From: Rhodobacter capsulatus SB 1003
GTDB taxonomy: Bacteria; Pseudomonadota; Alphaproteobacteria; Rhodobacterales; Rhodobacteraceae
DNA: 32,000 nt
NCBI RefSeq assembly: GCF_000021865.1
Contig: NC_014034.1
Coordinates: 690,001 to 722,000 of the forward strand
Direction: 5' to 3'
The translations under genes were made by a program, and so were the position numbers. Shown piece after piece: positions 1 to 27,631 of the stretch. Numbering within the stretch: the stretch's first letter is position 1; every line of letters begins with the position of its first letter. The notes beneath the pieces were generated by a model, which worked only from the letters and a program-made list of their open reading frames with translations, had not been told where the DNA came from and ran no database searches.

Positions 1-97
1 TGCCCTCCATCAGCAGCGGACGGGCCTGCAGCTCCGCCCCGGCCAATCCGAGGGCAAGCCCGAGCGCGATCAGCGCGGTCCTAGCGGCAAAAGTCAT
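1..97 (-). CDS. 5' end of an exported protein (signal peptide only; gene continues beyond the window start)
   Basis: The reverse complement of 1-97 reads ATG ACT TTT GCC..., giving MTFAARTALIALGLALGLAGAELQARPLLMEG. This has a charged n-region, a hydrophobic core and an AGA/E cleavage-like site. The ATG at 95-97 overlaps the 3' end of the upstream gene (stop 81-83) by 17 nt, so the operon appears to continue. It is too short to appear in the ORF track. Confidence 0.35.
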   Translation of the reverse strand, partial: MTFAARTALIALGLALGLAGAELQARPLLMEG

Positions 98-1193
98 CAA
101 GCGCCCCCCGTGACAAGGTATCTTCCGCCGCGCGCAGCCGCGCGCAGACCGCGGTCAACCGGCCCGCCGCCGCGGCCGAGCCCGCCGCCCGGGCCCGCGA
201 ATAGTAATCGGCCGCCTGGGCGGGGGCATCGGCAAAGCTCAGCCCCAGTTGCGTTTCCACCGTCGGATCGGTGACGGCGGCGTCGTAAAGCGTGCCGAAC
301 AGCAACAGCGCCTCGGCATCGCCCGCCTGCGCCGCGGTCTCGACGAAGATCAGCATCTGGTCGCGCCCCACCCGCTGGCCGCAGGCCCCGGCGGCGCGGG
401 TGATCGCGGTGATGCCGCCCAGCGCGCCCAGCGCCTCGGGCGTGCAGGGATCGGCCTGCCCCGGCGTCGCGGCGGCCGGTTCCGGTGTCGGTGCAGGCGC
501 CGGTTCCGGTGTCGGTCCGGGCGGCGTTTCCGGGGCTGGCGGGGGCTCCACCCCGGCCGAAAACGGCCATTGCTGCTGCAGGTATCGGGAATAACCAAGC
601 CCGAGCAGCGCCGCCAAAACCACCAGCGCCAGCGCGAGCACCAGCCAGAGCCAGCGGCGGCGCCTCGGTTCGGGGGCCGCGATCCCGGCGCTGTCCTGCT
701 CCGTCATCGGCGCGTCGGGCGGCAGCGGCGGCGGCGCGGTCACGCCCGCCTCGGCCTGCCGCAAGGCCGGTTCCGGCCCCTGTGCCGCGCCGGTCCTGCG
801 CGCGACCTGCAGGCCGATGCGCTGCCGGGCCAGATCGAGCGGCTGGATGTCGTTCGGCCAGAACAGATGGCCCTCGACCGGGCCCGCGACGATCCTGACC
901 TGGGTATAGCCCTCGATCTTGTTGACGATTTCCGGGCCGATGGCGATTTCGGCCGCGCCGTCGCGGCGCTGCACCCGGTAGGGGCCGAACAGGTGCCGCC
1001 CGGCCTGCCAGTTCGGCGCGCCAACGGAAATCCCCGCCGGGCCGTCCTGCGCCGAGGGCGCAAGCCAGCGTTCGGAATAGGTTTCGAACACCGAAACCGT
1101 CACCTCGTCGGGCAGCGCCGCGCCGTTTTCGACCCGAAGCAGCGCATGCCCGCCCGCGCCGTGGCCGGGATCGCGCTGAACCGTCAGCGTCAT
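81..1193 (-). CDS. Bitopic membrane protein: cytoplasmic N-domain of unknown fold, one TM helix, Pro-rich spacer, periplasmic Sel1/TPR-like repeats
   Basis: The in-frame ATG at 1191-1193 (residue 46 of tracked ORF 81..1328) forms an ATGA overlap with the srfC-like stop at 1190-1192. The longer tracked start would overlap srfC. RRRRWLWLVLALALVVLAALLGLGY is a positive-inside TM helix, and PPPAPETPPGPTPEPAPAPTPEPAAATP is a spacer. AAQAGDAEALLLFGTLYD...AADYYSRARAAGSAAAAGRL fits the Sel1 repeat pattern. Confidence 0.75.
   Translation of the reverse strand: MTLTVQRDPGHGAGGHALLRVENGAALPDEVTVSVFETYSERWLAPSAQDGPAGISVGAPNWQAGRHLFGPYRVQRRDGAAEIAIGPEIVNKIEGYTQVRIVAGPVEGHLFWPNDIQPLDLARQRIGLQVARRTGAAQGPEPALRQAEAGVTAPPPLPPDAPMTEQDSAGIAAPEPRRRRWLWLVLALALVVLAALLGLGYSRYLQQQWPFSAGVEPPPAPETPPGPTPEPAPAPTPEPAAATPGQADPCTPEALGALGGITAITRAAGACGQRVGRDQMLIFVETAAQAGDAEALLLFGTLYDAAVTDPTVETQLGLSFADAPAQAADYYSRARAAGSAAAAGRLTAVCARLRAAEDTLSRGALDDFCR
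475..522. repeat. Tandem 24-bp direct repeat (2 copies) inside the Pro-rich linker coding region
   Basis: GCCGGTTCCGGTGTCGGT-GCAGGC is followed immediately by GCCGGTTCCGGTGTCGGT-CCGGGC. The 18-nt core is identical. On the minus strand it encodes the duplicated TPEPAPAP/TPEPAAAT segment. Confidence 0.6.
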
Positions 1194-3862
1194 CGCCGCC
1201 CCTCCCGATGCATGCCCTCGAGGATGGCGCCAAGACGCAGGTTCTGTTCGATGTCGATGTCGCCGCCCAGCCCGTCGCGCGCATTCGCATCCATCACCGC
1301 ATCCAGCGCGAAAGCCCAGTCCTCCCACATGTCGCTGGCGGTGGCGCGCGGCGTCGCGGGCAGCCCGGTCACATCATCCTGCCCGGGCCGCCGCGCAAAG
1401 GCGGGACGCGGCGGTCCGACCTCTGGCGTCACCGTCGGACGCGCCGTTTCGGGCAGCGCCGACATGCCCAGCGTGGCGACGAAATCATTGATCATTTCTG
1501 CCGTCAGCACCGCGGCCGTGGGCGCCAGCCGCTCCACCGTCAGGCCGAAATTCAGCTCCGAGAGCCGCTCCGCCATCCGCCCCGACAGCCCGGTCCGGCG
1601 CGCGGCATGGATCAGCTCCGCCACCAGATCGGCGATCGACTGCGGCCGCAGGCCATAGCCGGAGGCCCGCGCCGGATCGTCGCGAAAGGCCTTGATCCCC
1701 TCGATCCAGAGCAGGATCGACTGTTCCGCCTGAAATTCCTCCAGCGTCAGGGTGCGGACCTGCTCGCCGCCGCGTGCCGCCGCCTCCGGCGTGGCGGGCG
1801 CCGGGCCGCCGCCGGGCCGCGCCACCGTGGCGCCGCCCGGTCGCGCCGGGGCCGCCGGACGGACCGGCCCGGCCCCGGCCGAGCCGGTGCTGGCCGCCGC
1901 ACTCACCGCAGAGCCGATGCGGATCGAGCTGGGCACGCGCACGATGTTTTCGGCGATCGCATCCTGATCGACGCCCAGCGCCGAGAGCACCGCGCCGAAG
2001 CGGTGCTGCTGCAGCGCCACCAGCAGATCATCCAGAATCGCGTTGCAGGACTTGCGCTTTTCCTCGATCCGGGTGTGCAGGTCGTCGGCGACGTGATGCG
2101 GCGCAAGTGTCTGCAGCAGATCCTCGACCACCCGTCCCAGCTGCTGCTCGATCTGGCGCAGCTTCTGATCGGGCTTGCACACCCGCGTCAGCGCCTCCAC
2201 CAGATAGCGCACCCCCCCGTCATTGAGCGTCAGCGCCGCATCCCAGGCGCCTTCGGGATCGGCGAAATGGCGCCGCACCGCCGTGGCTTCCAGACAGCCC
2301 TGGCGCAGCTCGGCGATCCGCGCGGCCTTTTCCGGCCGGATCCGCAACTCGCGGCGGTCGTCGTCATAATCGATCAGCCCGTCGACGTAGAAATTCGGAT
2401 TGCGCAGCCAGAAGCAGTTCTGAAACGGCCGGCCCGCGGCCCAGCTGTCCACCCAATTGTCGCTGCCATTCGAGAATTTTTCCAGCAGCGAGGCCTCCAT
2501 GCGGCGCTGGAACCGCGAGGCCTCGCCCCCCGCGGCGGCATTGTCGCCCAGATGCTTGTCGAATTTCGTCAGCACGAAGAACAGGATGCAATCGACCAGC
2601 GCGCGCTGGTCGGGGCGGGCGCCATGGGTGCGCTCGATCCAGGTCGAGACCAGCCGCGGCAGATCCACCGTTTCCATGTTGCTGTCGGGCACGCACAGCA
2701 GCATCGAGGTGATTTCCTGATTTTCGACGTAGCGGTCGAACAGATAGGCGACCTTGCCGCGCAGCAGCAGCCCCGGCAGCGTCTCCGGGTCCTTCAGCGT
2801 GACCTCCAGCGCCTTGTTGAAGCGGTTGCGCGCGCCGGGAAAATCCAGCAGGTCGGTGGTGGCGAACAGCGGATGCGGCACGTCGCGCATCGGCAGCACC
2901 AGTTCCGCCGCCAGCGCGCAGATCCGCGCCCGCGGCAGCTTTGCGCGCAGCCCCGCGCCGGTCAGCACCTCGATCGTCTGCGCGCCCGTCGCCGGGCTCA
3001 GCACATCCGACAGCGTCTTGACGTCAAGGATCGAACTTTCGCGCGGCACCACCGCCTCCAGCCCGACATGGATCTCCTCGGGATGGCCGATCTGCGCCAG
3101 CGAGCCCGCCAGTTCCCGATAGAGCTGCGTCATCGGCGCATGACGGCCCCAGAACACCGACAGGAATTCGGCCCGGTCCTCGGGCGCGAGCAGCGGCGCC
3201 AGCGCCGCGGCCGGGTCGCGGAACGATTTCAGCGCCGCCGCATAGGAACTTTGGCGGGCGAAATTCGTCTCGATGTATTCCGCGATCTCGATCACGTCCT
3301 CGTCGCTCATGCCCGGCAGGGGCTGCGGCTGGCGGCGGGTCTGGAACGTGTCGAGATGGGCGGTCAGATCCGCGGGCTCGGGCGGCGGTTCCGACTTGTC
3401 GCCGTCCATGAAGAAGCTGTTGGCGATCACCCGCGCCAGATCGGCCTCGCTCAGCAGCGACAGCCGGATCGGAAAGCCCGCGGGCACCTCGGGGCGGGTG
3501 CAGGTGAACCGGGTCACAAGCCCGGTGCTTTCGCCTTCGCCTTCCGGGTTCAGCTCGCTGATGTAGTCAAGCCCGGTGGGGCCGAACTGCGCCACGAGGC
3601 GGCCATCGGCGGGCCGGGCCAGAACCGAGACCAGAAAGGACTTGCCCGCCTGCGAGGGGCCGAAGACGCTGACCGACATCGGCGTGCGGGCGGATTTGCC
3701 CAGCCGTTCGGCACGGCGCACCGCGCGGCGCAGGGTGCGCGTCATCGAGCCCTTCTCGGCGCCGACCCGGTCGGCGTTGCTCTGGACGTCAAGCCATCCC
3801 AGCGCCGCACGGCCGAGACCGGCAAGGGTGATGCAACGCTCCGAAATGCTGTCACTGCTCAT
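1190..3862 (-). CDS. srfC: SrfC-family protein ('virulence factor SrfC'), predicted large P-loop GTPase
   Basis: 890-aa ORF. G1/Walker A is VFGPSQAGKSFL (GPSQAGKS = 3638-3661), the G3-like motif is DLLDFPGARN (DFPG = 2834-2845), and the G4 motif is LTKFDK (TKFD = 2558-2569). It has no signal peptide or TM helix. It sits immediately downstream of the SrfB-like gene, as in srfABC loci. The overall sequence pattern is recognised as the SrfC family from memory and has not been searched. Confidence 0.8.
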   Translation of the reverse strand: MSSDSISERCITLAGLGRAALGWLDVQSNADRVGAEKGSMTRTLRRAVRRAERLGKSARTPMSVSVFGPSQAGKSFLVSVLARPADGRLVAQFGPTGLDYISELNPEGEGESTGLVTRFTCTRPEVPAGFPIRLSLLSEADLARVIANSFFMDGDKSEPPPEPADLTAHLDTFQTRRQPQPLPGMSDEDVIEIAEYIETNFARQSSYAAALKSFRDPAAALAPLLAPEDRAEFLSVFWGRHAPMTQLYRELAGSLAQIGHPEEIHVGLEAVVPRESSILDVKTLSDVLSPATGAQTIEVLTGAGLRAKLPRARICALAAELVLPMRDVPHPLFATTDLLDFPGARNRFNKALEVTLKDPETLPGLLLRGKVAYLFDRYVENQEITSMLLCVPDSNMETVDLPRLVSTWIERTHGARPDQRALVDCILFFVLTKFDKHLGDNAAAGGEASRFQRRMEASLLEKFSNGSDNWVDSWAAGRPFQNCFWLRNPNFYVDGLIDYDDDRRELRIRPEKAARIAELRQGCLEATAVRRHFADPEGAWDAALTLNDGGVRYLVEALTRVCKPDQKLRQIEQQLGRVVEDLLQTLAPHHVADDLHTRIEEKRKSCNAILDDLLVALQQHRFGAVLSALGVDQDAIAENIVRVPSSIRIGSAVSAAASTGSAGAGPVRPAAPARPGGATVARPGGGPAPATPEAAARGGEQVRTLTLEEFQAEQSILLWIEGIKAFRDDPARASGYGLRPQSIADLVAELIHAARRTGLSGRMAERLSELNFGLTVERLAPTAAVLTAEMINDFVATLGMSALPETARPTVTPEVGPPRPAFARRPGQDDVTGLPATPRATASDMWEDWAFALDAVMDANARDGLGGDIDIEQNLRLGAILEGMHREGRR

Positions 3863-3871
3863 CTTCTGGCC

Positions 3872-6800
3872 TTAAAACTTGAACACGCCGGTATCGATCC
3901 AGTAGTCATCGGCCGCGCCGAGGGTGTGCAGCTTCAGCACGACCTGATCGCGGCGCACGGTCTGCCCGTCGCCATCCTCGATCTCGCTCACCTCGAAAGC
4001 CTCGCGCGCGGCCTCGCGGCGCAGCGCGGTATCGGGGCGGGTGTCGTCGGGATCGGCGTCGAATTCCGCCCGTTCCAGCGTGACGACCAGCGGCGGCTTG
4101 TGACGCTGCGCCGCCGCATTGGCCAGATCGAGCCGGTAAAGCGGCGTCGTGGTCCAGCGCGGCAGCGGCAGTTGGCGGAACCCCAGATAGATCGGGGTGA
4201 ACATCCGCAGCCGGGCGCTGCCGCCGGTGTCGCGGCCCTGCGGATCAAGCTCGGTGCCGCCAAACAGCACCCGGTCGTCGGGGATCTGCCCCGAGGCGTC
4301 CATCTCGCCGATGAAGACCGCGGTCGAGCGCATCTTGAAGGCGGCGGTGGCGACCTTGAAATTCGGGATCCGCGATTCCGACAGCGCGATCAGCATGCCG
4401 CCCACCGCCACCGTCGATTTCGGATCGCCGATCCGCTGCGAGACCGGATCGCGGAACGGATACCAGCGCCCGGTGCGATAGTCGTTCATCAGGATCAGCC
4501 GATGCGGCGGCACCACCAGCATTTCCTCGAAGATCGTGCGCAGGGCGGGCAGCCGCGACGGCCGCCCGGTCATCAGCACGATATCCACCCCCAGATGGTC
4601 GATCACCTCGGCCAGGTTGCCCAGCGCTTTCTGAAAGGTCTCGCGGGTGATCGCATCGACCTTCTGGCGGTCGCAGTGCAGCACCGTGCCCGCCAGCCGG
4701 AACGTCTCCGCCCCCGAGGCCCGGGCCGGGGTCTCGAGATAGTCGATCAGCGCCGCGGGCAGGCCGCGGGGGCTGTCGTCGGCTGCGCTGTCCTCCTCGG
4801 GGCGGGGGGTCAGGCCCAGCACCGCGTCCAGCGCGATCGTCATCGTGTCGAACTCGCCCGCCCGTTCGCAGGCGCCGATCAGCTCCAGCGCCAGCGGCTG
4901 CAGCACCCGCAGCCCGAACTGGCGCCGCTTTTGCGCCAGCTGCTGGTCCTGGCCGCCGATGTCGCCCGCGAACAGCTCGCGCATCAGGTTCGGCGCGCTT
5001 TTGCCCCCCGCGGCGGTGATGGCGTTTTGCAGCTCGGGCAGGATGATCGAGGCGATCACCCGCTCGACCAGATCGTCGCCCGCGACGCGGAACCCCTCGC
5101 GGAATGTCTGTTCGGGCACCAGCATGCGGTTTTCACGGCAGAAATAGGTCGTCACCATCATGTCGGTGGTGCCGCCGCCAACATCGATGCAGGCCAGCCG
5201 CAGCGAGGGCTCGGGCGGGCGGCCCTTCGCCTGCACCCGCTCGCGTCCCTTCAGCCGCAGGAACCGCTCGATATGGCCGTCGAATTTCTGCGTGATCTCG
5301 GAGTAGAGATAGACCAGCTGGGTGCAGCTCGCCTCGTCCCATTCCTCGGAGACCTCGGGCTTGCGCGACACCGAGCTTTCCGCCCCGGTCAGGCCCAGCA
5401 TCGACCAGATCAGATCGACCGCCCCCTTGGCGCGCGAGCGCATGATCGCCTGTTCCTGGATCGAGGTGGCGGTGGGCAGGGTCAGGATGATCCGGCTCAG
5501 CCGCCGCGGCAGGTCCGATTGCGGCCTGCGCGCCCGGCCCGCGGGGGCGTTCACCTGCACCAGCGCATGGGCGATGATCTCGCTCAGCATGAAGCCGAAC
5601 AGCGACGAGCGGGAAAACCGTGGCCGCCCGGCCGGATCGGTCGAGGTCCGCCCGGGACGGCGCAGCTTGCTGCGTTCCTCCAGCTTGACCTGGGCGATCA
5701 CGTCGCCCGCGGCATTGAGAAACCGCATCGCCGAGCGCGCCGCCCGCGGCAGGTTGTTCGGGTCGGAATGGTTGTGAAAGCGCCAGTCCTGCAGCACCGC
5801 GCTTTCGTCCCACAGATAGCGCTTCGGGCTCGACAGGCCCGAGGCGACCTCGGTGCCCTCGTCCCCGGCCACCAGCCGCAGCGCCTCGGCGCCGATCCGC
5901 ACCGGCGAGGGCCAGATGAACCCGCCGGCGCGATGCGCCCGGCGCAGCTTGGTTTCCTCGATCATGCAGAATTCGGAAAACTCGACCCGGCTTTCGAACA
6001 GGCCCGCGCCGCTCAGCTCCGGCCGCGACAGGTCGCGGATTTCCAGCGGGTAAGAGCGTGCCGGATCCAGCCGGGCCTCGCCGGGGATATGTTCGATCAG
6101 GATGCCGCAGGTGCGCGAATTGCCGATGTCGAGCACCAGATCGACATCGATCGGCGTCACCGCATCATATTCGCCGATCGTGTTGCACAGCCGCAGCAGC
6201 GGAAACCGGATCGCGGTATCGAGCAGACGCAGATAGGCCAGATAGCGCGCCCAATGTTCCAGCCGGTGCGGCAGGTTTTCCGCGGTGATCCGGCGGCCGG
6301 GGCGTTCGGCGCGCTTGTAGGCCAGAAACAGCTCGTCGAGCAGATCCGACACCCAGCCCTGCGGATCGACCTGCTGGCCCGCGGCGTCGGTCTCGACCCG
6401 GCGCAGGAACCAGTCCATCCGCGCCGGATCGGACACGAAGCGGAACTCCCGGCTGTTGAGCGCGTCGCTGCGGTCGGGGGCGGGATAGGAGGCGCCGTCC
6501 TTTTCCGCGCCAAGCGCGGTGTCAAGCGCCAGCTGCACCCGGTGCGTATGCCCGGTTTCGGGGTCGGGCACCGGCAGGCGGACCGTGCGCAGCAGCGCCC
6601 AGGCGGTCGGACCGGGGTCGTAAAGCTCTTCGCCGCCCTCGCCATAGACGCTCTTGCGCCGCAGCACCGGCACCGGCAGCCATCTTTCCAGGAACGGATC
6701 CATCGCCGCCACCGGGCTGACGGAATATTCGTCGTCATCCGCCCGCGCCCCACGCAAAAGCGGCGCATCCAGTTCCTCGTCGCCCGAAAGCGGGATCAGC

Positions 6801-6994
6801 ACCCGCTCCTCCAGACCCGCGGCGATGTCGGGCCGTTCCATCACCCGCTCGATGAAGCGCATCCCGCGCATCTCGATGTCGGACTGGCGAAAGCCGAAAT
6901 CCAGGATCTGCAGCCCGGACCAGGGCACGAGGGTGACCTCGTCGCGCCATTCCGGGACCTTGGCGAGCGGATTTTGACGGTTCAGGCTGCTCAT
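3872..6994 (-). CDS. srfB: SrfB-family protein ('virulence factor SrfB'), Hsp70/actin (ASKHA)-fold ATPase-like
   Basis: The start is the ATG at 6992-6994 (residue 221 of tracked ORF 3872..7654), in an ATGA overlap with the upstream stop at 6991-6993. This gives 1040 aa. The phosphate-1-like motif is VLDIGNSRTCGILIE (DIGNSRT = 6110-6130). The phosphate-2-like motif is ACIDVGGGTTDMMV (DVGGGTTD = 5162-5185). The later LMTGRPSRLP is adenosine-motif-like. Confidence 0.85.
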   Translation of the reverse strand: MSSLNRQNPLAKVPEWRDEVTLVPWSGLQILDFGFRQSDIEMRGMRFIERVMERPDIAAGLEERVLIPLSGDEELDAPLLRGARADDDEYSVSPVAAMDPFLERWLPVPVLRRKSVYGEGGEELYDPGPTAWALLRTVRLPVPDPETGHTHRVQLALDTALGAEKDGASYPAPDRSDALNSREFRFVSDPARMDWFLRRVETDAAGQQVDPQGWVSDLLDELFLAYKRAERPGRRITAENLPHRLEHWARYLAYLRLLDTAIRFPLLRLCNTIGEYDAVTPIDVDLVLDIGNSRTCGILIEHIPGEARLDPARSYPLEIRDLSRPELSGAGLFESRVEFSEFCMIEETKLRRAHRAGGFIWPSPVRIGAEALRLVAGDEGTEVASGLSSPKRYLWDESAVLQDWRFHNHSDPNNLPRAARSAMRFLNAAGDVIAQVKLEERSKLRRPGRTSTDPAGRPRFSRSSLFGFMLSEIIAHALVQVNAPAGRARRPQSDLPRRLSRIILTLPTATSIQEQAIMRSRAKGAVDLIWSMLGLTGAESSVSRKPEVSEEWDEASCTQLVYLYSEITQKFDGHIERFLRLKGRERVQAKGRPPEPSLRLACIDVGGGTTDMMVTTYFCRENRMLVPEQTFREGFRVAGDDLVERVIASIILPELQNAITAAGGKSAPNLMRELFAGDIGGQDQQLAQKRRQFGLRVLQPLALELIGACERAGEFDTMTIALDAVLGLTPRPEEDSAADDSPRGLPAALIDYLETPARASGAETFRLAGTVLHCDRQKVDAITRETFQKALGNLAEVIDHLGVDIVLMTGRPSRLPALRTIFEEMLVVPPHRLILMNDYRTGRWYPFRDPVSQRIGDPKSTVAVGGMLIALSESRIPNFKVATAAFKMRSTAVFIGEMDASGQIPDDRVLFGGTELDPQGRDTGGSARLRMFTPIYLGFRQLPLPRWTTTPLYRLDLANAAAQRHKPPLVVTLERAEFDADPDDTRPDTALRREAAREAFEVSEIEDGDGQTVRRDQVVLKLHTLGAADDYWIDTGVFKF

Positions 6995-8307
6995 CTGGAA
7001 ATCTCGAACTCCGTGCTCCACCGTTTTTCCCGGCCGCGGAAGGTGCCTTCGCGACGCTGCTCGGGCGTTCCCGCCCGGCGCAGCACCACCCCGAAGGACA
7101 GATCGCCCCGGGGGGGCACGTCTGTCAGCCGCGCGACCTGAACCCGGTAGCGTCCCGGAACGGGGGTGTTGAAATGAATGTTCTCGACCGGGTCCTCGAC
7201 CGCGATCAGGGCGGGATAATTCGCATCGACATCCAGCAGCCCGCCACAATCGTTGGGCCTGCGCTGCAGGTCCGCGATCTGCCCCGAGGGGCAGCTGACC
7301 CGAAGATCGACATCGTCCCTGCCGCTCCAGACCAGCGAGATCGTCATCGCGCCCGCCGCGGCCCCGCGCGCCTGCAGCCGCCGGTCCAGATCGGCGATCT
7401 CGCTCTCCGGGGCTGCCGGGGCCTCGGCGCGTTTGCGGGCGTTCAGGCACATCCGTTCGGACAGGGCAAGCCGGTCGGTCAGCTGCGCGATCTCGGCACG
7501 CAGGGCCTCGGCTTGCAGCGCGGGCGCCGTCGCCGCGGCAGGCGCCGGGCAAAAGCCAAGGAAGCCCGGGCGCAGACCGCAGGGCGCGATCAGCAGCCAA
7601 AGCACCGCCGCGATCAGCGCCGCCACGAGCAGCCAGCCCAGAAGCACAAGCCAATGCCCCCAGGGGCGCGGCGTTTCGGGCGGCGGCGGTGCGGCCAGCC
7701 AGTGGGTTTCGGCCGCGGGAAAGGCGGGGGCGGGCAGGGCGGTGGCCGCCATGGCCGCCGCCGCCGCGGGGGGGCGACGGTTCGGCGCCAGCACCGAAAG
7801 CGCCCCGCGCGCGGCGCGCGTGGTATCAAGCAGGCGGCCCCAGTTCACCAGGATCGGGCGCAGACTGCCATCATCCTGACGCAGCGCCCAGATCGCGTCC
7901 TGATCCGGAACTTCGATCGCATTGCGCAGCGCCTCGGCCAGCCAGTAATTGTCGGCGCTGCTCTGCGCCCCGGTCGGCGGCCCGGCCTGCGCCCCGTTCT
8001 GGGCGCTGATCTGATCGGCCAGCGCCAGGATCCGGCCGTGGATCGCCGCCAGCCGGGCGCGGATCTCCTCGGCCTCCGGCCCGGAGAGCGCGGCCAGCGG
8101 CACCGGCCTGCCGGAACAGCCCGGCGGCACATACCATTCGATCCGCGCCCCGCCATGGGTCGAGACCGGCTCGGCGAAGATCGCGGCATGATCGCGGTCG
8201 AGGCGGTCGCAGAGCGTGCCGGTGATCAGCTCCCAGGAGCGCTGGGCGGCAGAGCCGAGCGCCTGCAGGCCTTCCGAGGAGGTGGTGGTGATCAACCCGT
8301 CCGACAT
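6991..8307 (-). CDS. SrfA-position bitopic membrane protein: cytoplasmic N-module, one TM, periplasmic coiled-coil plus DUF2135/YfaP-like beta-sandwich
   Basis: 438-aa ORF with a GGGGAG Shine-Dalgarno sequence upstream of the ATG at 8307. There is no signal peptide (it begins MSDGLITTTSSEG). The TM helix is WGHWLVLLGWLLVAALIAAVLWLLIA (about residues 217-241). The C-terminal MTISLVWSGRDDVDLRVSCPSGQ...GGLLDVDANY...PVENIHFNTPVPGRYRVQV resembles the DUF2135 pattern. The position directly upstream of srfB matches srfA, but assignment to the SrfA family is an inference. Confidence 0.7.
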   Translation of the reverse strand: MSDGLITTTSSEGLQALGSAAQRSWELITGTLCDRLDRDHAAIFAEPVSTHGGARIEWYVPPGCSGRPVPLAALSGPEAEEIRARLAAIHGRILALADQISAQNGAQAGPPTGAQSSADNYWLAEALRNAIEVPDQDAIWALRQDDGSLRPILVNWGRLLDTTRAARGALSVLAPNRRPPAAAAAMAATALPAPAFPAAETHWLAAPPPPETPRPWGHWLVLLGWLLVAALIAAVLWLLIAPCGLRPGFLGFCPAPAAATAPALQAEALRAEIAQLTDRLALSERMCLNARKRAEAPAAPESEIADLDRRLQARGAAAGAMTISLVWSGRDDVDLRVSCPSGQIADLQRRPNDCGGLLDVDANYPALIAVEDPVENIHFNTPVPGRYRVQVARLTDVPPRGDLSFGVVLRRAGTPEQRREGTFRGREKRWSTEFEISR

Positions 8308-8314
8308 CCGCCGC

Positions 8315-10087
8315 TCACTCCCCGCCCGGGCCGGGCGTTGCCGGGACCGTGCCGTCCGGGGCTCCGGCCGGTGCCCCGGGTGCGGGCGCGGCGGGGGCGG
8401 GGGCCGGGGCGGGGGTCGGGGCGGGCGTCGCCGAAGCGGGCGCCACCGTCGGTTGGCAGCTGGCGCGGTCCGGCGTCACGGCGGCGGGGGTTCCGGCCAG
8501 AAACTCGGCCAGACCCGCGGCCGAAAGCGCGAAATTCAGCGTGCGCAGCGGGCCTTGCCGGACGAAGGTGTTCACCCCGAGAACCCGGCCGCAGAAATCC
8601 ACCAAGGGCCCGCCGGAATTGCCCTGCGCCAGCGGCGCCGAATGCAGCAGCGTCTCGGTCGCGCCCTGCAGCGGCTGTTCCGCATTCACCGTGCCATCGA
8701 CGACGACGAGCCCGGGCATCGCCGCGCCATCGCCGCGCAGCAGCGCCTCATAGGCGGCGTCGGTCTCCATCACATCGCCCGGGAAGCCCGCGGCCACGAC
8801 GTGATTGAGCTTGAGCGAGGCGGCCGGATCGGCCAGCGGCAGCGCGGGCAGCGCGGTCGAACCGATCTTCAGCAGCGCGAAATCGGCCCCCACGGCCTCC
8901 AGCGGACCGGCGGTCTTGAGCACCTGCGCCGGTTGCGGCTGCCCCAGCAGCTTGTTCACCACGAAGGCGCCCTCGGGCCCGAGATCCTCGATCACATGCT
9001 GGTTGGTGACGATCAGCCCCGGCCCGACGGCAAAGCCCGACCCGGTCGAGACGCCCTGCGCCCCGGGGGCGATCACCAGCACGGTGGCCGCCTCGATCCG
9101 CGCCAGCAGAGTGTCGGTTTCCGCGGGGGCGCCGGGGGCGGCGGGCAGCAGCGCGCGCTCGGGCGCGGGGGCGACCGGGGAATCGGGCGCCACCTGCCCC
9201 TGTTCGGGCGCCGCGCCGGGCGCCGGAAGCGACAGGCCCTCGGGCGTGCGGTTCCCGGGCAGCACCAGAACGCCATCCTCGCGGCATTGCGCCCCCGCAA
9301 GCGCCTGCCGCAGCGCATCGCGGCGGTCGCGCAGCGCGCCCAGTTCGGTTTCCTGCGCCGCCGAGACATCGGCATCGCGGACCACGCTTTGCGGCGGGAA
9401 CACCCGGGTTCCGGGCAGCAACAGCCAGATCAGCACGAGGCAGAGCAGAACCAGCAGGATCGGCAGCGGCAGCCAGGCCGCCAGCGGCAGCACCGGGCGC
9501 GTCGCGGCGGGCGGCAGCCCCGCCGACATGGCCGGACCCGGCTGCGCGGCATCGGGGATCGGCGGCGGCACCGTCGCGGGCCCCGGCGCCGCCGCGGCAG
9601 GCCCGGCCGCCGCGGCATCGCCGCGCATGAACCCGGCCAGCGCGGGCGCCCCGCCGCGCGGGCGGACGCCCCAGTTCACCAGCACCGGAACGCCGTTGAT
9701 CGCCCGCACGTCGGCCGCCTGCGACAGCGAAAGCGCCGCCCGCACCAGCGCCGCCAGATCCGGCGTCAGCCCCGGATCGGTGGCCAGCGCCTCGATCTTC
9801 GGCAAGAGCCGCAGCAGCCGATCCTCGACCGCGCGGCGCAGCGCCGGGTCCAGATCGGCCAGCGGCCGGGCCTCGCCCGCATGCACCGAATGCCAGGCGA
9901 CGTTCAGCGCCGCACCCGCCGCGCCGCGGCTGACGAAGGGCTCGGCGAAGAGCTCCGCCGCCTCCGCGCCCAGCCGGGCGGTGAGCAGCTCGTGCAGCGC
10001 GGCATGGCGTTCCAGCACCGGCTGCCCGGCGACGGAAAGGCAGTCCTCGGCTTGCAGCGACGACCGGAAAAGGAAATGCTCGGCCAT
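8315..10087 (-). CDS. Fusion protein: SrfA-like cytoplasmic N-module, one TM, periplasmic coiled-coil, trypsin-like (S1/DegP-type, no PDZ) serine protease, Pro/Ala-rich tail
   Basis: 590-aa ORF. The N-module shares LFAEP...W...PL and P[IV]LVNWG blocks with the 438-aa protein. The TM helix is VLPLAAWLPLPILLVLLCLVLIWLLL. The catalytic triad motifs are intact: IVTNQHVI (His364, 8996-8998), GADFALLKI (Asp402, 8882-8884) and GNSGGPLVD (Ser491, 8615-8617). The start ATG at 10085-10087 overlaps the upstream TAA by 1 nt. Confidence 0.8.
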   Translation of the reverse strand: MAEHFLFRSSLQAEDCLSVAGQPVLERHAALHELLTARLGAEAAELFAEPFVSRGAAGAALNVAWHSVHAGEARPLADLDPALRRAVEDRLLRLLPKIEALATDPGLTPDLAALVRAALSLSQAADVRAINGVPVLVNWGVRPRGGAPALAGFMRGDAAAAGPAAAAPGPATVPPPIPDAAQPGPAMSAGLPPAATRPVLPLAAWLPLPILLVLLCLVLIWLLLPGTRVFPPQSVVRDADVSAAQETELGALRDRRDALRQALAGAQCREDGVLVLPGNRTPEGLSLPAPGAAPEQGQVAPDSPVAPAPERALLPAAPGAPAETDTLLARIEAATVLVIAPGAQGVSTGSGFAVGPGLIVTNQHVIEDLGPEGAFVVNKLLGQPQPAQVLKTAGPLEAVGADFALLKIGSTALPALPLADPAASLKLNHVVAAGFPGDVMETDAAYEALLRGDGAAMPGLVVVDGTVNAEQPLQGATETLLHSAPLAQGNSGGPLVDFCGRVLGVNTFVRQGPLRTLNFALSAAGLAEFLAGTPAAVTPDRASCQPTVAPASATPAPTPAPAPAPAAPAPGAPAGAPDGTVPATPGPGGE

Positions 10088-10803
10088 TACGGCGCCTCCT
10101 GCGTTCTGCGCATGATCACCTCTGAGCTGCTGCCGCTTTCGGGTTGGAACGAGGAACAGCTGGCCCGCTCGGCGCCATCGACCCGACAGGTCACCCGGCG
10201 CTGCAGGATTTCCATGTCGTTCGAACAGGGCAGATTGGCGGCCTCCTCGATCACCAGCGCCTGCCCCGGGACGAAGCTGCCGCTGACCGGCCCCTCGCAG
10301 CGGATGCCGTTCGAGCCCCGCATCGTCTCGGTGCCATTGCCCCCGGCGTCAAAGCACACTGTCCATTCCGAAAATTCGGTGATCTCGCCGGTGGCGCGGT
10401 TTTGCGTGCGATAGGGGCTGTCAAGCGCCCAGCAGCCCTGCAGATCGCCCAGATCGGCCTTGTCGATCATGTCCTTGTCCAGCACCGGCGGCGGGTCGGG
10501 CTCCGGTTCCGGCGCCGGTTCCGGCAGCGGCTCGGGGGCGGGCAGGGGCGCTGCGACGGGCGCGGGACAGTCAAGCCCCGCAAGCCGGGCCTCGAGGCTG
10601 CGGATCTCGGCGCGCAGCGCCGCGCTTGCGACGCGGTCCTCGGCCAGCGGATCTTGCAGGATCGTGCCCGGACAGCTGCCAAGCCGCAGGCTGCCGAAGG
10701 GCAGCGCGACCTCGCAGGAGGGAAGCAGCAGCGCCGCCGTTGCGGCCGAGACCGCAAGAAGGGCCGCGCCCCCTACCCAGATCGAGACGATACGCATCGA
10801 CAC
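10087..10803 (-). CDS. Small N-terminally anchored or exported protein with coiled-coil segment, PEP-repeat spacer and Cys-rich C-terminal domain
   Basis: 238-aa ORF starting at GTG 10803, or alternatively at ATG 10797. The N-terminus MSMRIVSIWVGGAALLAVSAATAALLLPSC is a signal anchor or signal peptide, and LPSC is a weak lipobox. It contains ALRAEIRSLEARLAGLDC, then PAPEPLPEPAPEPEPDPPP, then about 120 residues with 6 Cys. I recognise no known family. Confidence 0.6.
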   Translation of the reverse strand: MSMRIVSIWVGGAALLAVSAATAALLLPSCEVALPFGSLRLGSCPGTILQDPLAEDRVASAALRAEIRSLEARLAGLDCPAPVAAPLPAPEPLPEPAPEPEPDPPPVLDKDMIDKADLGDLQGCWALDSPYRTQNRATGEITEFSEWTVCFDAGGNGTETMRGSNGIRCEGPVSGSFVPGQALVIEEAANLPCSNDMEILQRRVTCRVDGAERASCSSFQPESGSSSEVIMRRTQEAP

Positions 10804-10853
10804 GGAACACCCCGCTGCGCCGACGCAAGCGCCGGCATGCCGCCTGTTGCCAC

Positions 10854-12128
10854 TCAGTTGGCGGTGATCGCCTTCGACAGGATCGCCGTGCGTTCCGCCG
10901 TCTGGTTCGGCAGAACCGCCGGGGCGGCGCCACTTGTCACGGCGTCCAGCGCAAACCGGATCCAGGCGCGGGAGGCCTCGGGATTGGCGGTGAAGCCGAA
11001 GCCCTCGCGCAGGTGATGGCCCAGCAGCTCGGCATAGGGTTTCATCTCCGCCGCCGCGAGCGTGGCCAGCGCCACATTCGCCATCGCCGCATCATCGGTG
11101 CGATAGCCCTCGGCGAGGCAGACCCGGCCCGAGACCTGGGTCGCGCTCAGCGTCTTGCCGGAGGCGTCGATCACCTTGCGGATGTCGGCCAGTGTCGCCT
11201 CGGGCGGGCGGGCGGCGGGATCGGCCAGCTTCGCCGAAAGCGCGGTCTTCATCTGGCCGCAAAGCGAGGTGATCAGCGCCTGCGTCGCCCCGACATCCTT
11301 GGCGACCTTTTCGCCATCGGCGGTGGCGAAGGTGCGGGCGAGGCAGAATTGCTCGTCCAGCGCAAGGCCGGGGTTCGGCATCTGCTCGGCCGTGGCCATG
11401 CCGCCATTGCTGGTGGTCAGGACATTGGTCTGGTTGCACAGGTTGTTCATCGAGGCCGCGGGCGGCGACAGATCGCCGAAATCCGGGATCGAATCCTGCG
11501 CGGTGATCGCGGCGGCGGCGGCGGCCGGAGCGGCCACCGGCGGCACCGGAGCGGGCGCGGGCGTTGCGGGCAGCTGCGGCTGGGCATAGGGCGTCGCGGG
11601 GGCCTGCGGATAGGGCGGCATCGGCGTCGGATAGGGGGCGGCGGGGGCCATCGGCGTGCGCTGATACATCGCCGGAAGGCCGCGCCGCCCATAGGGATTG
11701 GCCGCGGCCAGCTGCGCCGCCTCGGCGGGGTTGAGCCGTTCGCGCGCCATCGCATCTTGCAGCAGGGCGCGCTGATCGGCGGTGATCACCCCGTCCTGCA
11801 TCCGCCCGAGCGTGCCCTGAAAGGCCGCGATCGCCGCACGGGTGCGCTTGCCGGGGGAACCATCGACCGGACCGGCGTCGAAGCCGAAATTGTTCAGCGC
11901 CTGCTGCATGTCCTTGTCCGCCTGAACCTCGGCGGCGGGGCGCGCGGGGGCCGCCTTGCGCGGGGTGCGGTGCTGGCGCGGCGGAGGATTGTTCTGCGCG
12001 GCGCCCGCGATCATGGCGCCGATCACCAGACCGGCAAGGCCCGCCCCGAGATCGTCGGCGGCCGAGGCCTGCGGCGCAAGCGCCAGAGAAACTGCCAGGC
12101 CGACATTCAAGAACGATTGTCTCTTCAT
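10854..12128 (-). CDS. Secreted protein with peptidoglycan-binding (PG_binding_1-like) domain, Pro-rich region and unknown Cys-containing C-terminal domain
   Basis: The start is the ATG at 12126-12128 (residue 11 of tracked ORF), preceded by GAGGAAAG. The signal peptide is MKRQSFLNVGLAVSLALAPQASA. MQQALNNFGFDAGPVDGSPGKRTRAAIAAFQGTLG...GVITADQRALL fits the PG-binding repeat pattern. It is the first gene of the minus-strand operon. Confidence 0.75.
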   Translation of the reverse strand: MKRQSFLNVGLAVSLALAPQASAADDLGAGLAGLVIGAMIAGAAQNNPPPRQHRTPRKAAPARPAAEVQADKDMQQALNNFGFDAGPVDGSPGKRTRAAIAAFQGTLGRMQDGVITADQRALLQDAMARERLNPAEAAQLAAANPYGRRGLPAMYQRTPMAPAAPYPTPMPPYPQAPATPYAQPQLPATPAPAPVPPVAAPAAAAAAITAQDSIPDFGDLSPPAASMNNLCNQTNVLTTSNGGMATAEQMPNPGLALDEQFCLARTFATADGEKVAKDVGATQALITSLCGQMKTALSAKLADPAARPPEATLADIRKVIDASGKTLSATQVSGRVCLAEGYRTDDAAMANVALATLAAAEMKPYAELLGHHLREGFGFTANPEASRAWIRFALDAVTSGAAPAVLPNQTAERTAILSKAITAN

Positions 12129-12300
12129 TCTTTCCTCGCCGAAATCGTGTGGTTGCAACCGGATATTAATCCCGGTCGCAGGTCATTCATTTTTCGAAAA
12201 CGCACGCCAAAACTGGCGTTTTACAAAAGATATACAGGCAAAGGGATTCGTGTAAACGGAAAAGGCAAACCGTTTCCGGTTTGCGTTGCGCGTGTTTTAA
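12129..12300 (-). promoter_or_regulatory. AT-enriched leader/promoter region of the srf-type operon with short inverted repeats
   Basis: GC content drops visibly relative to the flanks. Inverted repeats present are ACGCCA-aaac-TGGCGT and AAACGG-N10-CCGTTT. A TAATAT -10-like hexamer lies on the minus strand. No convincing -35 element was identified. Confidence 0.3.
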
Positions 12301-15221: not shown

Positions 15222-15512
15222 GAAAGGACGCTCCTCGGGCGTCGGCAAAAGCGAGTCGGGTGGATATCTTTGTTCGCCATGAACGGTGAACCGCGACCAT
15301 CTGTCAACTTGGCAGTTTTCGAACGCAAGCGGCGGCTCGCGCAAAAGATGTGCAGAAGGGCTTCTGAAAATCCGCAAAAGGCCGGGTTTCGTCGCATTTT
15401 AGCGAAGAATACCTGGTGTTCCGACCTTGCGGGGCATCGGGGCGGGGCGGGATTCGCAAAGCCTTAGGAAAGCCGCGGCACGCTCGCCTTGGTTGCAAAT
15501 GGGTGCCTTCAG

Positions 15513-17924: not shown

Positions 17925-20900
17925 TTACACCAGACCGCCAAGGGCGGGGGCGCGTTGCCGGTCCAGATAGTCGCGAAAGGCCGCTTCCTCGAGCGGCGGC
18001 GCGAAGAGATAGCCCTGCAGGATGTCGCAGCCCATCTGCCGCAGCGTCTCGGCCTGGGCCATGGTCTCCACCCCCTCGGCGATGGTGGCCACGCCAAGCG
18101 TGCGGGCGATCTGCACGATCTGCCGCACTAGATCGGCCTCGTGCGTGTCGCGGCGCAGCGCCGCCACGATGCGCCGGTCGATCTTCAGCGCCGCGGGCCG
18201 GATCTCCATCAGCCCGAGGATCGAGGTCTGCCCCGAGCCGAAATCGTCGATCTCGATGTCGATCCCCTCGGCGCGCAGCCGCGCCAGGGTTTCGCGCAGG
18301 TCGCAGCCCTCCTCCTGCCAGTCGCCGGTCTCGCGCAGCTCCAGCGCCACCCGGGTCCGGCCGCGCCCGACCCGCCGCACCGCCGCGGGCAGCGCCGGAT
18401 CGTGCAGACGCCCGGTGCAGACGTTGAAGCTGATCCGTGGCAAGATGATCCCCGTCGTCTCGAGCCGCTCCAGCACCGCGGCGGTCTTTTCCATCATCAC
18501 CCGGTCGATCTCGGGGACGATCCGCAGATCGCGCGCCACCCGCAAGAATGCATCGGGCGTCAGCAGGCCGCGTTCGGGATTGCGCCAGCGTACCAGAACC
18601 TCGACCCCGGCCAGCCGCAGATCCTGCGCCCGGACCTGCGGCTGGAACCAGGGTTCGAATTCGTCCCGCTCGAAGGCGGCGCTGAACTGCGCCGCCATCA
18701 TCCGGTCGAGATGCATCTGCTCGGCCATCGCATGGTCGAAGATCTCGACCCGGTTGCGCCCCGTCGCCTTCGCCCGATAGAGCGCGGCATCGGCGTAAAG
18801 CTGCAATTCCTCGGCCAGATCGGTGATGTTCTTCGCAATCACCACGCCAAAGGAGGCGCTGATCCGGCAGGGATGGCCGCGGTAGCGCAGCGGCTCGTCC
18901 AGCCCCTTGCGCAGCCGCTCGAGCACCTTGCGCGCCCGGACCTCGGTGCTGCCGGGCGCGAGCAGCAGGCAGAATTCGTCGCCGCCAAGCCGGGCGGCGA
19001 AATCATCCGCCTGCAGGCTGCTGCGCATCAGATCGGCGACCCGCATCAGCACCCGGTCGCCCGCCTCGTGGCCCAGCGTGTCGTTGATCTGCTTGAAATG
19101 ATCGAGATCGATCTGGATCAGCACGCAATCGCGCGGCCCGCCCAGCTCTGCCGCGCGCAGGCGGGTCTCGATGTGGCGGTCGAAATAGCGCCGGTTCGGC
19201 AGCCGCGTCAGCCCGTCATGCAGCGCCAGATGCTCGTTTTCGCCGCGCATCCGCTCGGCCAGCGCATAGGCGCGTTCCAGCTCGGCCTCGCGCAGGACAT
19301 CGGGCGTGGCGTCGTAAAGCGCGCCGGTCCAGACCACCGTGCCGTCGGGCTTCGCCTCGGGCAGCGAGGCCGCCATCAGCCAGATCTGCCCGCGTTCGGG
19401 ATGGATGTAGCGAAACCGCATCCGCCAGGGCGTCAGGCTTGCCGCGCTCTGCCGCGTCATCTCTTCCATCGCCACGCGATCCTCGGGCAGGACCCGGTCC
19501 AGCAGGCCGCCGCCAAGCCGGTCGATCGCGGCGCGATCAAGGCCCACAAGCTCGCTGAACCGGCCGCTCGTATAGGGAAAATCGGCGCTGCCGCCGCGGC
19601 TGCGGCGATATTCGAACAGCCCCACCGGCACGATGTCGAGGATCGAGGCGATGCGCGCATGCGCCAGCCGGATCTCCTCGGCGGCGGCGGTGGCCCGGGC
19701 CTCCATCTCCAGCCGGTCGGTGATGTCAAGCGCCTTGCCGAACCAGCGCACCCGCCCGTCGGCCTGCACCGAGGGCGAGGCCCAGAGATTGACCCAGCGC
19801 GTGCTGCCGTCGGGCAAAAGCACCCGATGCCGCGCCTCGACCTGCGACAGCGTCTCGCGCGAGCGTTCGAAGGCGGCATAGACCGCCGCGAATTCCGCGG
19901 GCGGGATGTTGCGAAACACCGCCGGGCCGCCCGCCAGCATGTCGGCCGCGGTGACGCCCAGAAGCTCGACGAATTTGTGGGTGAAATAGGGGAAGGACAC
20001 GATGTCGCCGCTGCGCTGCATCTCGAACAGCGCCCCGGGGACGTTCTGCGCGATCGTGTCCAGCCGTTCATGCGCCAGCCGCAGCTCTTCGAGCGTTTCG
20101 GCCAGCCGCGCCTGCATCGCGCTTTGCTCGGTCACGTCCAGCACCGAGCCGTACCAGATCACCGAGCCGTCGGGCTGGCGCACTGGCATCGAGGACAGCT
20201 GCATCCGGCGCAGGCCCTTTTGCGGATGCAGGAGCCGGTAGAGGATGACGAGCGGCGTCAGGCTGTCGCGCGAGGTCCGGATCGCCTCGGTCAGTTGCGG
20301 GGCATCCTCGGGGTGGATGTTGGCGGCGGCGGCGGCGCCATCGGCCTCGATCGCGGCCCGGGGCACGCCCAGCAGATCGGGCAGACGGGCGCTGAAATAG
20401 GGCAGGTCGATCCGGCCCGAGGGAAATTCGCGGTGTTCGAACAGCGCCCCCGGGGCCTTGTCGGCAAGCGTGTTCAGCCGGTCGCGTGCGATCCGCGCCG
20501 CCTCGGCCGCCTCTGCCAGCCGTTTTTCCGCTTCCTTGCGCGCGGTGATGTCCTGGAACGCGCCGCAGATGCGGACCGGCTGGCCGTCTTCGAACTGCGC
20601 CTCGCCCAGCGACAGCACCCAGATCCGGGTGCCGTCGGCGCGGATCAGCGGCAGCTCGAACTGCCAGGAGGTGCCGTCGCGCATCGCCGCCGCGACCGCC
20701 TCGGTGACCACCGGGCGGGCCTCGGGGGCGTAGAAGTCGATCGCGCTTTCCAGCGGCGGCACCGTGCCCGGCGGCATGCCATGGATCCGGCAGGTCTCGT
20801 CGGACCAGTAGATTTCCTCGCTGCGCACGTCGAGTTCCCAGCAGCCGAAGCCCGCCAGCGCCCCGGCCTTTTCCAAAAGCCCCTGCACCCGGCGCAACTG

Positions 20901-27508: not shown

Positions 27509-27519
27509 CTGGTCCGTCT

Positions 27520-27571: not shown

Positions 27572-27631
27572 ATCGCGGGCGGGGGCGGAAAAATCCTCGT
27601 CAAAGGACGCGGGCGCGGTTATGCCGGGGGC

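Follow-up and report, generated by a model that had tools for sequence, protein, structure and literature searches.

The subject of this analysis is a stretch of 32,000 nucleotides (nt) from Rhodobacter capsulatus SB 1003 (contig NC_014034.1, positions 690,001 to 722,000), further called the window, and the Srf operon located at its beginning. Within the window, the operon comprises eight co-directional minus-strand genes (g1 to g8; Table 1), which run from position 12128 past position 1, as was established by a check of the open reading frames (ORFs). The analysis points to SrfB (g5) as an Hsp70-fold ATPase and to SrfC (g6) as a dynamin-superfamily-like GTPase, both predicted to be cytoplasmic, and it indicates that the domains of SrfA, the third Srf protein, are distributed among the products of g2, g3 and g4. 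SrfB and SrfC have carried the label 'virulence factor' for about 25 years without a mechanism. The reading preferred here, to which a probability of roughly 0.4 is given, is an engine-and-adaptor scheme, in which an Hsp70-like/dynamin-like membrane-remodelling engine is recruited under the control of the periplasm.

Predicted folds of SrfB and SrfC

The assignment of g5 and g6 to the SrfB and SrfC families had been proposed in an original prediction made from the sequence of the window, and the profile hidden Markov model (HMM) search applied here bears it out for both proteins from end to end. SrfB matched PF07520 with 1153.5 bits over residues 10-1038 of 1040 (gathering score 27.1), and SrfC matched PF10139 (Virul_Fac) with 1076.1 bits over residues 20-881 of 890 (gathering score 28.1). 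Among the candidates scored, SrfB was represented by at least 2084 and SrfC by at least 3323 clusters at 90% identity. The SrfB of the window is 97% identical to that of R. capsulatus SP108 (L001), and its SrfC has 99% identity to the protein 'putative virulence factor [Rhodobacter capsulatus]'. Searches of both proteins against PDB chains, with single sequences as well as with profiles, returned nothing credible, the rows for RecA, antibody and major histocompatibility complex chains being noise. Therefore, the fold calls for SrfB and SrfC rest on predicted structures. Two hhalign comparisons of low-diversity profiles with single sequences were weak and were not used: the SrfB profile aligned with the nucleotide-binding domain of DnaK in the region of the adenosine motif alone (24% probability), and the SrfC profile aligned with dynamin-1 in the P-loop alone.

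The AlphaFold2 model of SrfB (predicted local distance difference test, pLDDT, 73.8) gave 158 Foldseek matches at E <= 0.001, the top ones being full-length DnaK in the ATP state (E 5.5e-11, probability 1.00). Three motifs are invariant in SrfB, namely DxGNSRxCG (residues 289-297), DxGxGTTD (604-611) and TGRPSR (809-814). Their invariant residues D289/G291, D604/G606/G608/T609/T610/D611 and G810/R811/P812 correspond to the phosphate-1, phosphate-2 and adenosine motifs. Both the model and the ASKHA motifs agree with the Hsp70-like character ascribed to SrfB earlier, and SrfB is predicted to be an Hsp70-fold (ASKHA) ATPase. While SrfB resembles Hsp70/DnaK in its alignment with full-length ATP-state DnaK and in the three motifs, it differs in belonging to a separate Pfam family, PF07520, with no match to the Hsp70 family, and in having about 440 additional residues, which include a beta-rich N-terminal region of about 280 amino acids (aa). 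Moreover, no match to the J-domain (DnaJ) or GrpE families was obtained with Pfam for any operon product, so that the operon does not have the composition of an Hsp70 chaperone system.

The AlphaFold2 model of SrfC (pLDDT 85.7) consists of a GTPase domain followed by helical bundles, and its six top Foldseek matches were BDLP (two entries, E 9.2e-4), Fzo1 (two entries), mitofusin-1 and IniA. In an alignment of 62 sequences, the G1 motif GPSQAGKS (68-75), T117 and the DFPG motif (340-343) are invariant; in the G4 motif TKFD (432-435), T432, K433 and D435 are invariant and F434 is at least 90% conserved. The motifs and the architecture together argue for a GTPase similar to the dynamin superfamily, by which the GTPase call of the original prediction is narrowed. 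The best structural matches of the model lie among bacterial dynamin-like proteins, the group of Nostoc BDLP, LeoABC of enterotoxigenic Escherichia coli, Bacillus DynA and IniA/IniC, and among mitofusin/Fzo1, and the series G1-G4 (GxxxxGKS, T, DxPG, TKxD) with the helical bundles behind it is common to SrfC and dynamins. Unlike dynamins, SrfC has no sequence-level relation to any solved structure and is obligatorily paired with a protein of predicted Hsp70 fold. To our knowledge, such a pairing has not been described for bacterial dynamin-like proteins or for mitofusin/Fzo1. Residues 653-699 of SrfC (window 1766-1906) form a conserved loop rich in Arg, Pro and Gly (consensus ~RPGxxxRPxRPGRP), predicted to be disordered (pLDDT <50), which could be a lipid-binding or SrfB-binding segment.

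SrfA-type domains and the other envelope proteins

The SrfA family is described by the NCBIfam model NF040486 (438 positions, 150-bit cut-off). No operon product matched the whole model at 150 bits or more, that is, with the N-terminal head, the transmembrane (TM) helix and the C-terminal domain in one protein. The N-terminal part of the model (SrfA-N) matched g4 (positions 4-227, 49.6 bits, E 3.9e-13) and g3 (positions 3-273, 28.6 bits, E 9.1e-7), and the C-terminal part (SrfA-C) matched g2 (positions 285-423, 43.9 bits, E 2.1e-11). Because of this distribution, SrfA is not missing but divided, with its halves on different proteins and SrfA-N duplicated on g3 and g4. The g2 protein may be described as a 'headless SrfA', which comprises an N-terminal membrane anchor, a module of Cys...Cys, coiled coil and Cys, a Pro-rich linker and a Cys-rich SrfA-C. 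In an alignment with Klebsiella SrfA, it matches the C-terminal domain and has conserved cysteines in common with it; the Cys-rich domain recognised earlier in the operon is thus the SrfA C-terminal domain of g2.

The SrfA-N-type head of g3 (residues ~1-200) is followed by a TM helix (206-224) and a trypsin-like serine protease (349-505), which is periplasmic in the predicted topology. The protease matched Trypsin_2 with 70.4 bits (cut-off 27.6), and its triad H364, D402 and S491, at least 90% conserved in 23 aligned g3 sequences, is intact in g3, in agreement with the trypsin-like S1 protease of the original prediction. Judging from these residues, the protease is active-looking. In g4, the SrfA-N head (~1-175) is followed by a TM helix (222-240), a Cys and coiled-coil module and a periplasmic DUF2135-like domain (~320-438). 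Of 26 aligned g4 sequences, made up of the window copy and 25 orthologues, 12 matched DUF2135 (PF09906; best E 7e-5), and the g4 of the window gave no match at E <= 1, so that the domain proposed earlier is detectable in part of the alignment and not in the copy in which it had been proposed. A periplasmic juxtamembrane module is common to g2 (~10590-10720) and g4 (~7440-7590) and has the order Cys, about 10 residues, Cys, coiled coil, Cys-Pro/Gln-Pro. The presence of this module in both sequences suggests disulfide-linked hetero-oligomeric stalks.

The N-terminal head of g4, searched against 1.84 billion representatives, returned only 269 clusters. Among the 111 top full-length matches, 100 had the architecture of g4 and 6 that of SrfA, and in P0253, P0342 and P0355 SrfA-N is fused to a vWA domain. 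In every locus examined, SrfA-N adjoins SrfB-SrfC. By these comparisons, SrfA-N is a small family of cytoplasmic heads carried on interchangeable periplasmic domains.

The remaining proteins of the operon are also directed to the envelope. The g1 protein has a signal-peptide-like N-terminus, a PG_binding_1 domain (72-123, E 3.4e-10), which is the peptidoglycan (PG)-binding domain expected from the earlier reading, a Pro-rich linker and a C-terminal domain without a known family. In the g7 protein, a conserved cytoplasmic N-domain (about 120 aa) and a low-complexity linker precede the TM helix (182-200); a Pro-rich linker then leads to a predicted periplasmic helical domain with four conserved cysteines. 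Neither Sel1 nor any other Pfam family was found at E <= 1 in 25 aligned g7 sequences, the window copy included, and the Sel1 repeats previously assigned to g7 are therefore rejected. A relationship of the g7 N-domain to SrfA-N was considered and set aside: hhalign of g7 with g4 aligns the TM helices alone, and the weak NF040486 match of g7 (E 0.0027), which spans the linker and TM region, was discounted.

The hydropathy scan found no hydrophobic segment in SrfB and SrfC, a single mid-protein TM segment in each of g3, g4 and g7, and a hydrophobic segment at the N-terminus of g1 and g2; the fragment of g8 likewise starts with a hydrophobic stretch. This supports the topology predicted originally, in which SrfB and SrfC are cytoplasmic and the remaining products are bitopic or secreted. 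In the g2, g4 and g7 alignments, conserved cysteines are restricted to domains predicted to be periplasmic.

Conservation of the operon and its continuation beyond the window

The domains of the window were compared with the ORFs of 43 loci retrieved via SrfB, which belong to Rhodobacterales and one Devosia; their SrfB proteins are 53-68% identical to that of the window, apart from the same-species locus mentioned above. The counts given below refer, where so stated, to the loci with enough flank. Among loci with enough flank, g4 immediately precedes SrfB in 40 of 41, and g7 follows SrfC in all 38. The g3 gene was found in 35 of the 43 loci, the remaining eight being too short upstream, and g2 is directly upstream of g3 in 17 of 35 loci. 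In 27 loci, a g1 homologue is located no more than about 10 kb upstream of SrfB, on the same strand in 15 and on the opposite strand in 12, and g1 is thus loosely associated and not a fixed member of the operon. The order g3-g4-SrfB-SrfC-g7 recurs in nearly all 43 loci, and the conserved operon is real. The co-conservation of the accessory genes with srfBC, on which the original prediction depended, consequently holds for g3, g4 and g7, whereas g1 and g2 are variable.

The operon does not end at the window edge. In R. capsulatus CP198951.1 (L048), which has 98.4-98.7% DNA identity to the window, four genes (g8-g11; Table 1) directly follow g7, and in at least 35 related loci a vWA protein (~640 aa), an ABC ATPase, a permease and an FGE-fold protein are conserved on the same strand downstream of g7. 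The eight genes of the original prediction are therefore real, but the set was incomplete, as four conserved genes, g8 to g11, continue beyond the window. Together with SrfC and the bitopic protein, the vWA, ABC, permease and FGE genes make up an extended Srf cassette, the off-window part of which was read in CP198951.1 and its relatives. The g9 protein matched ABC_tran with 73-86 bits. The g10 protein has 4 TM helices, the first two being separated by a periplasmic loop of about 225 aa; its matches to MacB_PCD (21.7 bits) and FtsX (16-18 bits) are weak, all of them being under the curated cut-offs. The g11 protein matched the FGE fold PF03781 with 67-77 bits. FGE catalysis depends on a Cys pair near the C-terminal end of the domain; the C-terminal part of the g11 FGE domain is cysteine-free in L006 and L002. 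For lack of this pair, a catalytic FGE role of g11 is rejected, and g11 is more likely a binding module.

The g9-g10 pair resembles the type VII ABC mechanotransducers (FtsEX-EnvC, MacB, LolCDE) in combining an ABC ATPase with a 4-TM permease that has a large periplasmic loop, and the long helical tail of the secreted g11 has a counterpart in EnvC. It differs from them in that the Pfam matches lie under the cut-offs and that g11 carries an FGE-fold domain rather than LytM. In CP198951.1, g3 and g4 (3737-6872) are each broken into two ORFs, and 74 gap positions occur over 13.5 kb; these breaks look like assembly indels or strain-specific decay and not a property of the locus, as neither gene is interrupted in the window or in SP108. 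The FGE-fold gene of CP198951.1 is followed by an ORF of 265 aa without a Pfam match (19280-20077) and, from 20257 onward, by a giant protein of more than 2281 aa of ALTTAQ repeats.

Relation to other Srf loci

An annotated Cereibacter plasmid carries the same 12 genes. On Klebsiella IncFIB plasmids the order is a 'tellurite resistance domain protein', SrfA, SrfB, SrfC, a g7-like bitopic protein, vWA, ABC ATPase, permease and SUMF1/FGE, and the 'tellurite resistance domain protein' contains SrfA-N according to our own HMM (E 1.8e-12). The srf genes were found on 144 plasmids, 114 of them from Klebsiella. A copy of the 17-kb Klebsiella module with at least 99% identity is present in 28 E. coli chromosomes; in E. 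coli ET490 the module lies in a tRNA-Phe island with an integrase and insertion sequence (IS) elements, and the cassette occurs in 33 of 5426 E. coli genomes. The 12-gene module thus moves as one unit and is horizontally mobile. In Rhizobium leguminosarum pRL10 (L046), a g3-type head without the protease, a g4-type protein, SrfB, SrfC and a split g7 are present, and a GH3 glycoside hydrolase with several secreted hypothetical proteins replaces the vWA/ABC/FGE genes. This Rhizobium variant adjoins a helix-turn-helix (HTH) and ImmA/IrrE pair; these features lie at L046 7895-8762 and 9769-23424.

The operon shares with srfABC of Salmonella enterica, Xenorhabdus stockiae and Rahnella the full-length, adjacent SrfB and SrfC in the same order, and both SrfA-N and SrfA-C domains occur in R. 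capsulatus. Unlike in srfABC of the Salmonella type, there is no single SrfA and hence no three-gene srfABC; the protein encoded upstream of SrfB is a fusion of SrfA-N with the DUF2135-like domain, SrfA-N is duplicated on the protease and on the DUF2135-like domain, and at least five more genes follow SrfC. SrfA-C is carried on a SrfA-N head in Klebsiella and Rahnella, the Rahnella locus consisting of srfA, srfB and srfC only. In comparison with the extended cassette of the Klebsiella IncFIB plasmids and the E. coli island, the downstream half is the same and in the same order; a second SrfA-N paralogue lies upstream of SrfA in Klebsiella, and the g7-like protein has the same position and architecture, but no detectable sequence similarity to g7. 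The outer domains also differ, being SrfA-C and tellurite-resistance-like in Klebsiella and protease and DUF2135-like here, and the PG-binding protein of R. capsulatus replaces glycine-zipper and lipoprotein genes. The R. capsulatus operon is therefore a Rhodobacterales, lineage-specific and naturally 'dissected' Srf form, and is not categorically new.

Part of this framework, namely the topology of SrfA and the vWA/ABC/FGE cassette, has already been published in a preprint of September 2026 (10.64898/2026.09.18.752743), according to which SrfA consists of a pseudokinase-like N-domain followed by a TM helix and a C-domain that is lipocalin-like and has four Cys. The preprint notes Lol-like ABC, vWA and SUMF1 neighbours, reports the extended cassette for Haemophilus and Xenorhabdus, and makes no mention of the Hsp70, dynamin, protease or DUF2135 variants (10.64898/2026.09.18.752743). 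The literature covered, retrieved for SrfB/SrfC and srfABC, their Pfam accessions and family names, contains no defined mechanism for these genes as a set. The earlier statement that no mechanism had been assigned is correct to this extent, but SrfABC has been called a tripartite toxin and the 2026 preprint proposes vesicle export.

Proposed mechanism and rival explanations

In the engine-and-adaptor scheme, the SrfA-N heads, and probably the N-domain of g7 too, would serve as docking platforms that hold SrfB at the inner membrane. SrfB would spend ATP to load or activate SrfC, and SrfC would spend GTP on remodelling the inner membrane by sealing, pinching or vesiculation. The interchangeable periplasmic domains would set the timing and place of this process by binding or cleaving periplasmic or cell-wall-associated targets, and their state would be relayed via the single TM helices and the Cys/coiled-coil stalks. 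In parallel, the ABC/MacB-like pair may act mechanically on the FGE-fold/coiled-coil or vWA partner in the periplasm, in a way similar to FtsEX-EnvC. Most likely, the system serves as an accessory means by which the cell responds to envelope insult or competition, and not as a soluble toxin; this role is the least secure step of the scheme.

The bitopic adaptors that the original prediction had placed between the two compartments are supported by the SrfA-N heads of g3 and g4, by Xenorhabdus SrfA, which co-immunoprecipitates with SrfB and SrfC in a complex formed by the three proteins (PMC6950479), and by the AlphaFold3 model of the preprint, in which the SrfA platform binds SrfB and SrfC joins afterwards (10.64898/2026.09.18.752743). 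The trans-envelope machine as a whole, which it had also proposed, fits the composition of the operon and the predicted topology, while energy coupling and its direction are pure inference.

Several points weigh against the scheme. The case for R. capsulatus is built on sequence and predicted structures. No partner of the J-domain or exchange-factor type is detectable for SrfB among the operon products. SrfC is without a TM segment and no membrane paddle was identified in it, the E values of its Foldseek matches are modest and the TM-scores are low (0.16-0.24 on query); because of these features, its membrane-remodelling role rests on analogy with the superfamily. The minimal srfABC loci of Salmonella and Rahnella are without the vWA/ABC/FGE genes, which are therefore not essential to the core. 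No known defence family was found in SrfB or SrfC with PADLOC-DB 2.0. Moreover, published work interprets SrfABC as a toxin (PMC6950479), the swarming defect of Salmonella under FlhDC is not obviously a response to envelope damage (PMC4219756), and signalling might run either outside-in or inside-out.

Among the rival explanations, a conflict or immunity system directed against phage, bacteriocins, contact-dependent toxins or predators, in which periplasmic sensors detect the invader and the NTPases set the threshold of the effector, is possible but rather unlikely. Its component vocabulary of GTPase, HSP70-fold, vWA, FGE-fold and trypsin domains is that of the conflict systems predicted by Kaur, Burroughs, Iyer and Aravind in 2020 (PMC7159879), which share with the Srf operon the thematic parts list and the variability of effector and sensor domains. 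The accessory Srf domains are swappable among lineages, and the genes are carried on plasmids and on the integrase-bearing tRNA-Phe island, with the rare occurrence in E. coli noted above. However, the systems of Kaur et al. are cytoplasmic, occur mainly in multicellular prokaryotes and use other GTPase and HSP70 families, with SrfB/SrfC unmentioned (PMC7159879). Besides SrfB and SrfC, PADLOC-DB 2.0 also matches none of g1, g2 and g4, giving only a generic protease domain in g3 and a weak match in g7; the phage collection is without a SrfC homologue, the neighbours in the window are signalling and lipopolysaccharide (LPS) genes and not defence genes, and Salmonella srfABC belongs to the flagellar regulon (PMC4219756). 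Another explanation is a module of surface behaviour, controlled together with motility or by cyclic di-GMP (c-di-GMP), through which the envelope or cell wall would be remodelled in swarming, biofilm formation or differentiation. In Salmonella, srfABC is FlhDC-controlled, and mutants in srfB, in srfC or in the whole operon are impaired in swarming, with normal swimming (PMC4219756); two PAS-GGDEF-EAL genes and a chemoreceptor are neighbours of the operon in the window, and a PG-binding domain is present in g1 and a GH3 hydrolase in the Rhizobium version. The neighbourhood is not conserved, with unrelated flanks on plasmids and in the E. coli island, and a core motility function would not usually show such a patchy, mobile distribution, which makes this explanation improbable.

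A tripartite SrfABC toxin, in which the Srf proteins are the cargo, exported for instance in outer-membrane or outer-inner-membrane vesicles to kill eukaryotic cells, with the ABC, vWA and FGE proteins serving export or maturation, is of comparably low probability. In its favour, E. coli co-expressing Xenorhabdus SrfABC is cytotoxic, each Srf protein alone is cytotoxic and the operon has injectable insecticidal activity, apart from the complex formation already mentioned (PMC6950479), and the 2026 preprint argues for vesicle export of the toxin with the same neighbouring cassette (10.64898/2026.09.18.752743). The presence of the cassette on Klebsiella plasmids of clinical isolates points in the same direction. 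This cytotoxicity, however, was measured on E. coli-expressed and isolated proteins and not on natural secretion. SrfB and SrfC are large NTPases whose catalytic motifs are conserved and which are without an export signal, the profile of an engine rather than of cargo; SrfA-type proteins are stably membrane-anchored, and formylglycine maturation is unlikely for an FGE-fold protein without the catalytic Cys pair. The toxin explanation is weakest for the hosts considered here, which are free-living phototrophs and marine bacteria of the Roseobacter group. Finally, a chance run of unrelated genes, with tight junctions resulting from compact high-GC coding, is hardly credible. Short gaps and overlaps are common in bacterial genomes, and g1 and g2 are variably present, but the order g3-g4-SrfB-SrfC-g7 followed by vWA, ABC, permease and FGE is the same across dozens of genera, and related versions occur in Gammaproteobacteria, by which the explanation is refuted for the core.

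The engine-and-adaptor scheme may be taken one step further, to a proposition that is doubtful at present: Srf systems would represent an unrecognised class of envelope machines, in which bitopic proteins that sense or attack an intruder or lesion mark the places at the inner membrane where a dynamin-like GTPase is loaded by an Hsp70-fold ATPase, that is, a prokaryotic Hsp70-dynamin system of membrane repair, vesiculation or immunity. If this were true, SrfA-N would be a universal adaptor head, with protease, DUF2135, lipocalin-like and vWA as outer domains, and the R. capsulatus operon would be the 'dissected' version with each periplasmic function on its own gene. Apart from this proposition, the present analysis recasts the 'virulence factor' pair as an Hsp70-fold ATPase and a dynamin-like GTPase, SrfA-N as a reusable head, and the locus as an envelope-spanning cassette of 8-12 genes with three NTPases, so that what was called a 'toxin' can be tested as a machine. 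R. capsulatus is a non-pathogen amenable to genetics, and its protease, DUF2135 and SrfA-C domains are individually deletable, as they lie on separate genes. A role in membrane repair, vesiculation or immunity would also bear on plasmid-borne fitness traits in Klebsiella and on the use of dynamins by bacteria.

Layout of the operon and neighbouring genes

The coordinates of the features are given in Table 1. The eight genes and seven junctions reported in the original prediction were exact in all coordinates, gaps and overlaps. The GC content of the window is about 0.70, at which raw ORF lists are cluttered, and a third-position GC of 0.76-0.86 backs the frames of g1 to g8. According to the terminator scan, the gap between g1 and g2 is free of terminator-like sites. 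This and the promoter candidate upstream of g1 fit a single transcript, for which they are weak evidence.

Table 1. Features of the Srf operon in the window and genes continuing it in CP198951.1 (L048)
Feature	Position	Strand	Description
g1	10854-12128	-	424 aa; 50-nt gap to g2
g2	10087-10803	-	238 aa; GTG start, in-frame ATG 2 codons later; 1-nt TAATG overlap with g3 at 10087
g3	8315-10087	-	590 aa; 7-nt gap to g4
g4	6991-8307	-	438 aa; ATGA overlap with g5
g5 (SrfB)	3872-6994	-	1040 aa; 9-nt gap to g6
g6 (SrfC)	1190-3862	-	890 aa; ATGA overlap with g7
g7	81-1193	-	370 aa; 17-nt overlap with g8
g8, 5' end	1-97	-	32 codons, signal-peptide-like; gene runs off the window edge
g8	off window		637 aa in L048; secreted vWA protein; window has signal peptide/32 codons only
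g9	off window		246 aa in L048; ABC ATPase (ABC_tran)
g10	off window		399 aa in L048; MacB_PCD/FtsX-like permease
g11	off window		543 aa in L048; FGE-sulfatase-fold, secreted, long helical tail
Sigma-70-like promoter candidate	12227-12256	-	upstream of g1; TTTACA, 18-nt spacer, TATCTT; consensus match only
Terminator-like hairpin	12265-12284	-	belongs to the preceding PAS-GGDEF-EAL gene, upstream of the g1 promoter candidate

Directly upstream of the operon, two PAS-GGDEF-EAL proteins (12411-15377 and 17925-21662, both on the minus strand) flank a NIT-sensor chemoreceptor (15489-17906, plus strand). As other loci have different neighbours, this adjacency may be due to coincidence. The genes for tRNA-Gly(TCC) (21859-21932, plus strand) and tRNA-Arg(TCT) (22145-22221, minus strand) lie about 10 kb from the srf cluster, and the GC content is not distinctive. 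Two tandem Kdo-transferase paralogues with a 4-nt overlap (22720-24084 and 24081-25370, minus strand) adjoin an EptA-like phosphoethanolamine transferase (25841-27976, minus strand), and these genes look like a cluster of LPS-core modification. An ORF of 211 aa at 30874-31509 (minus strand) has good coding statistics and no Pfam match.

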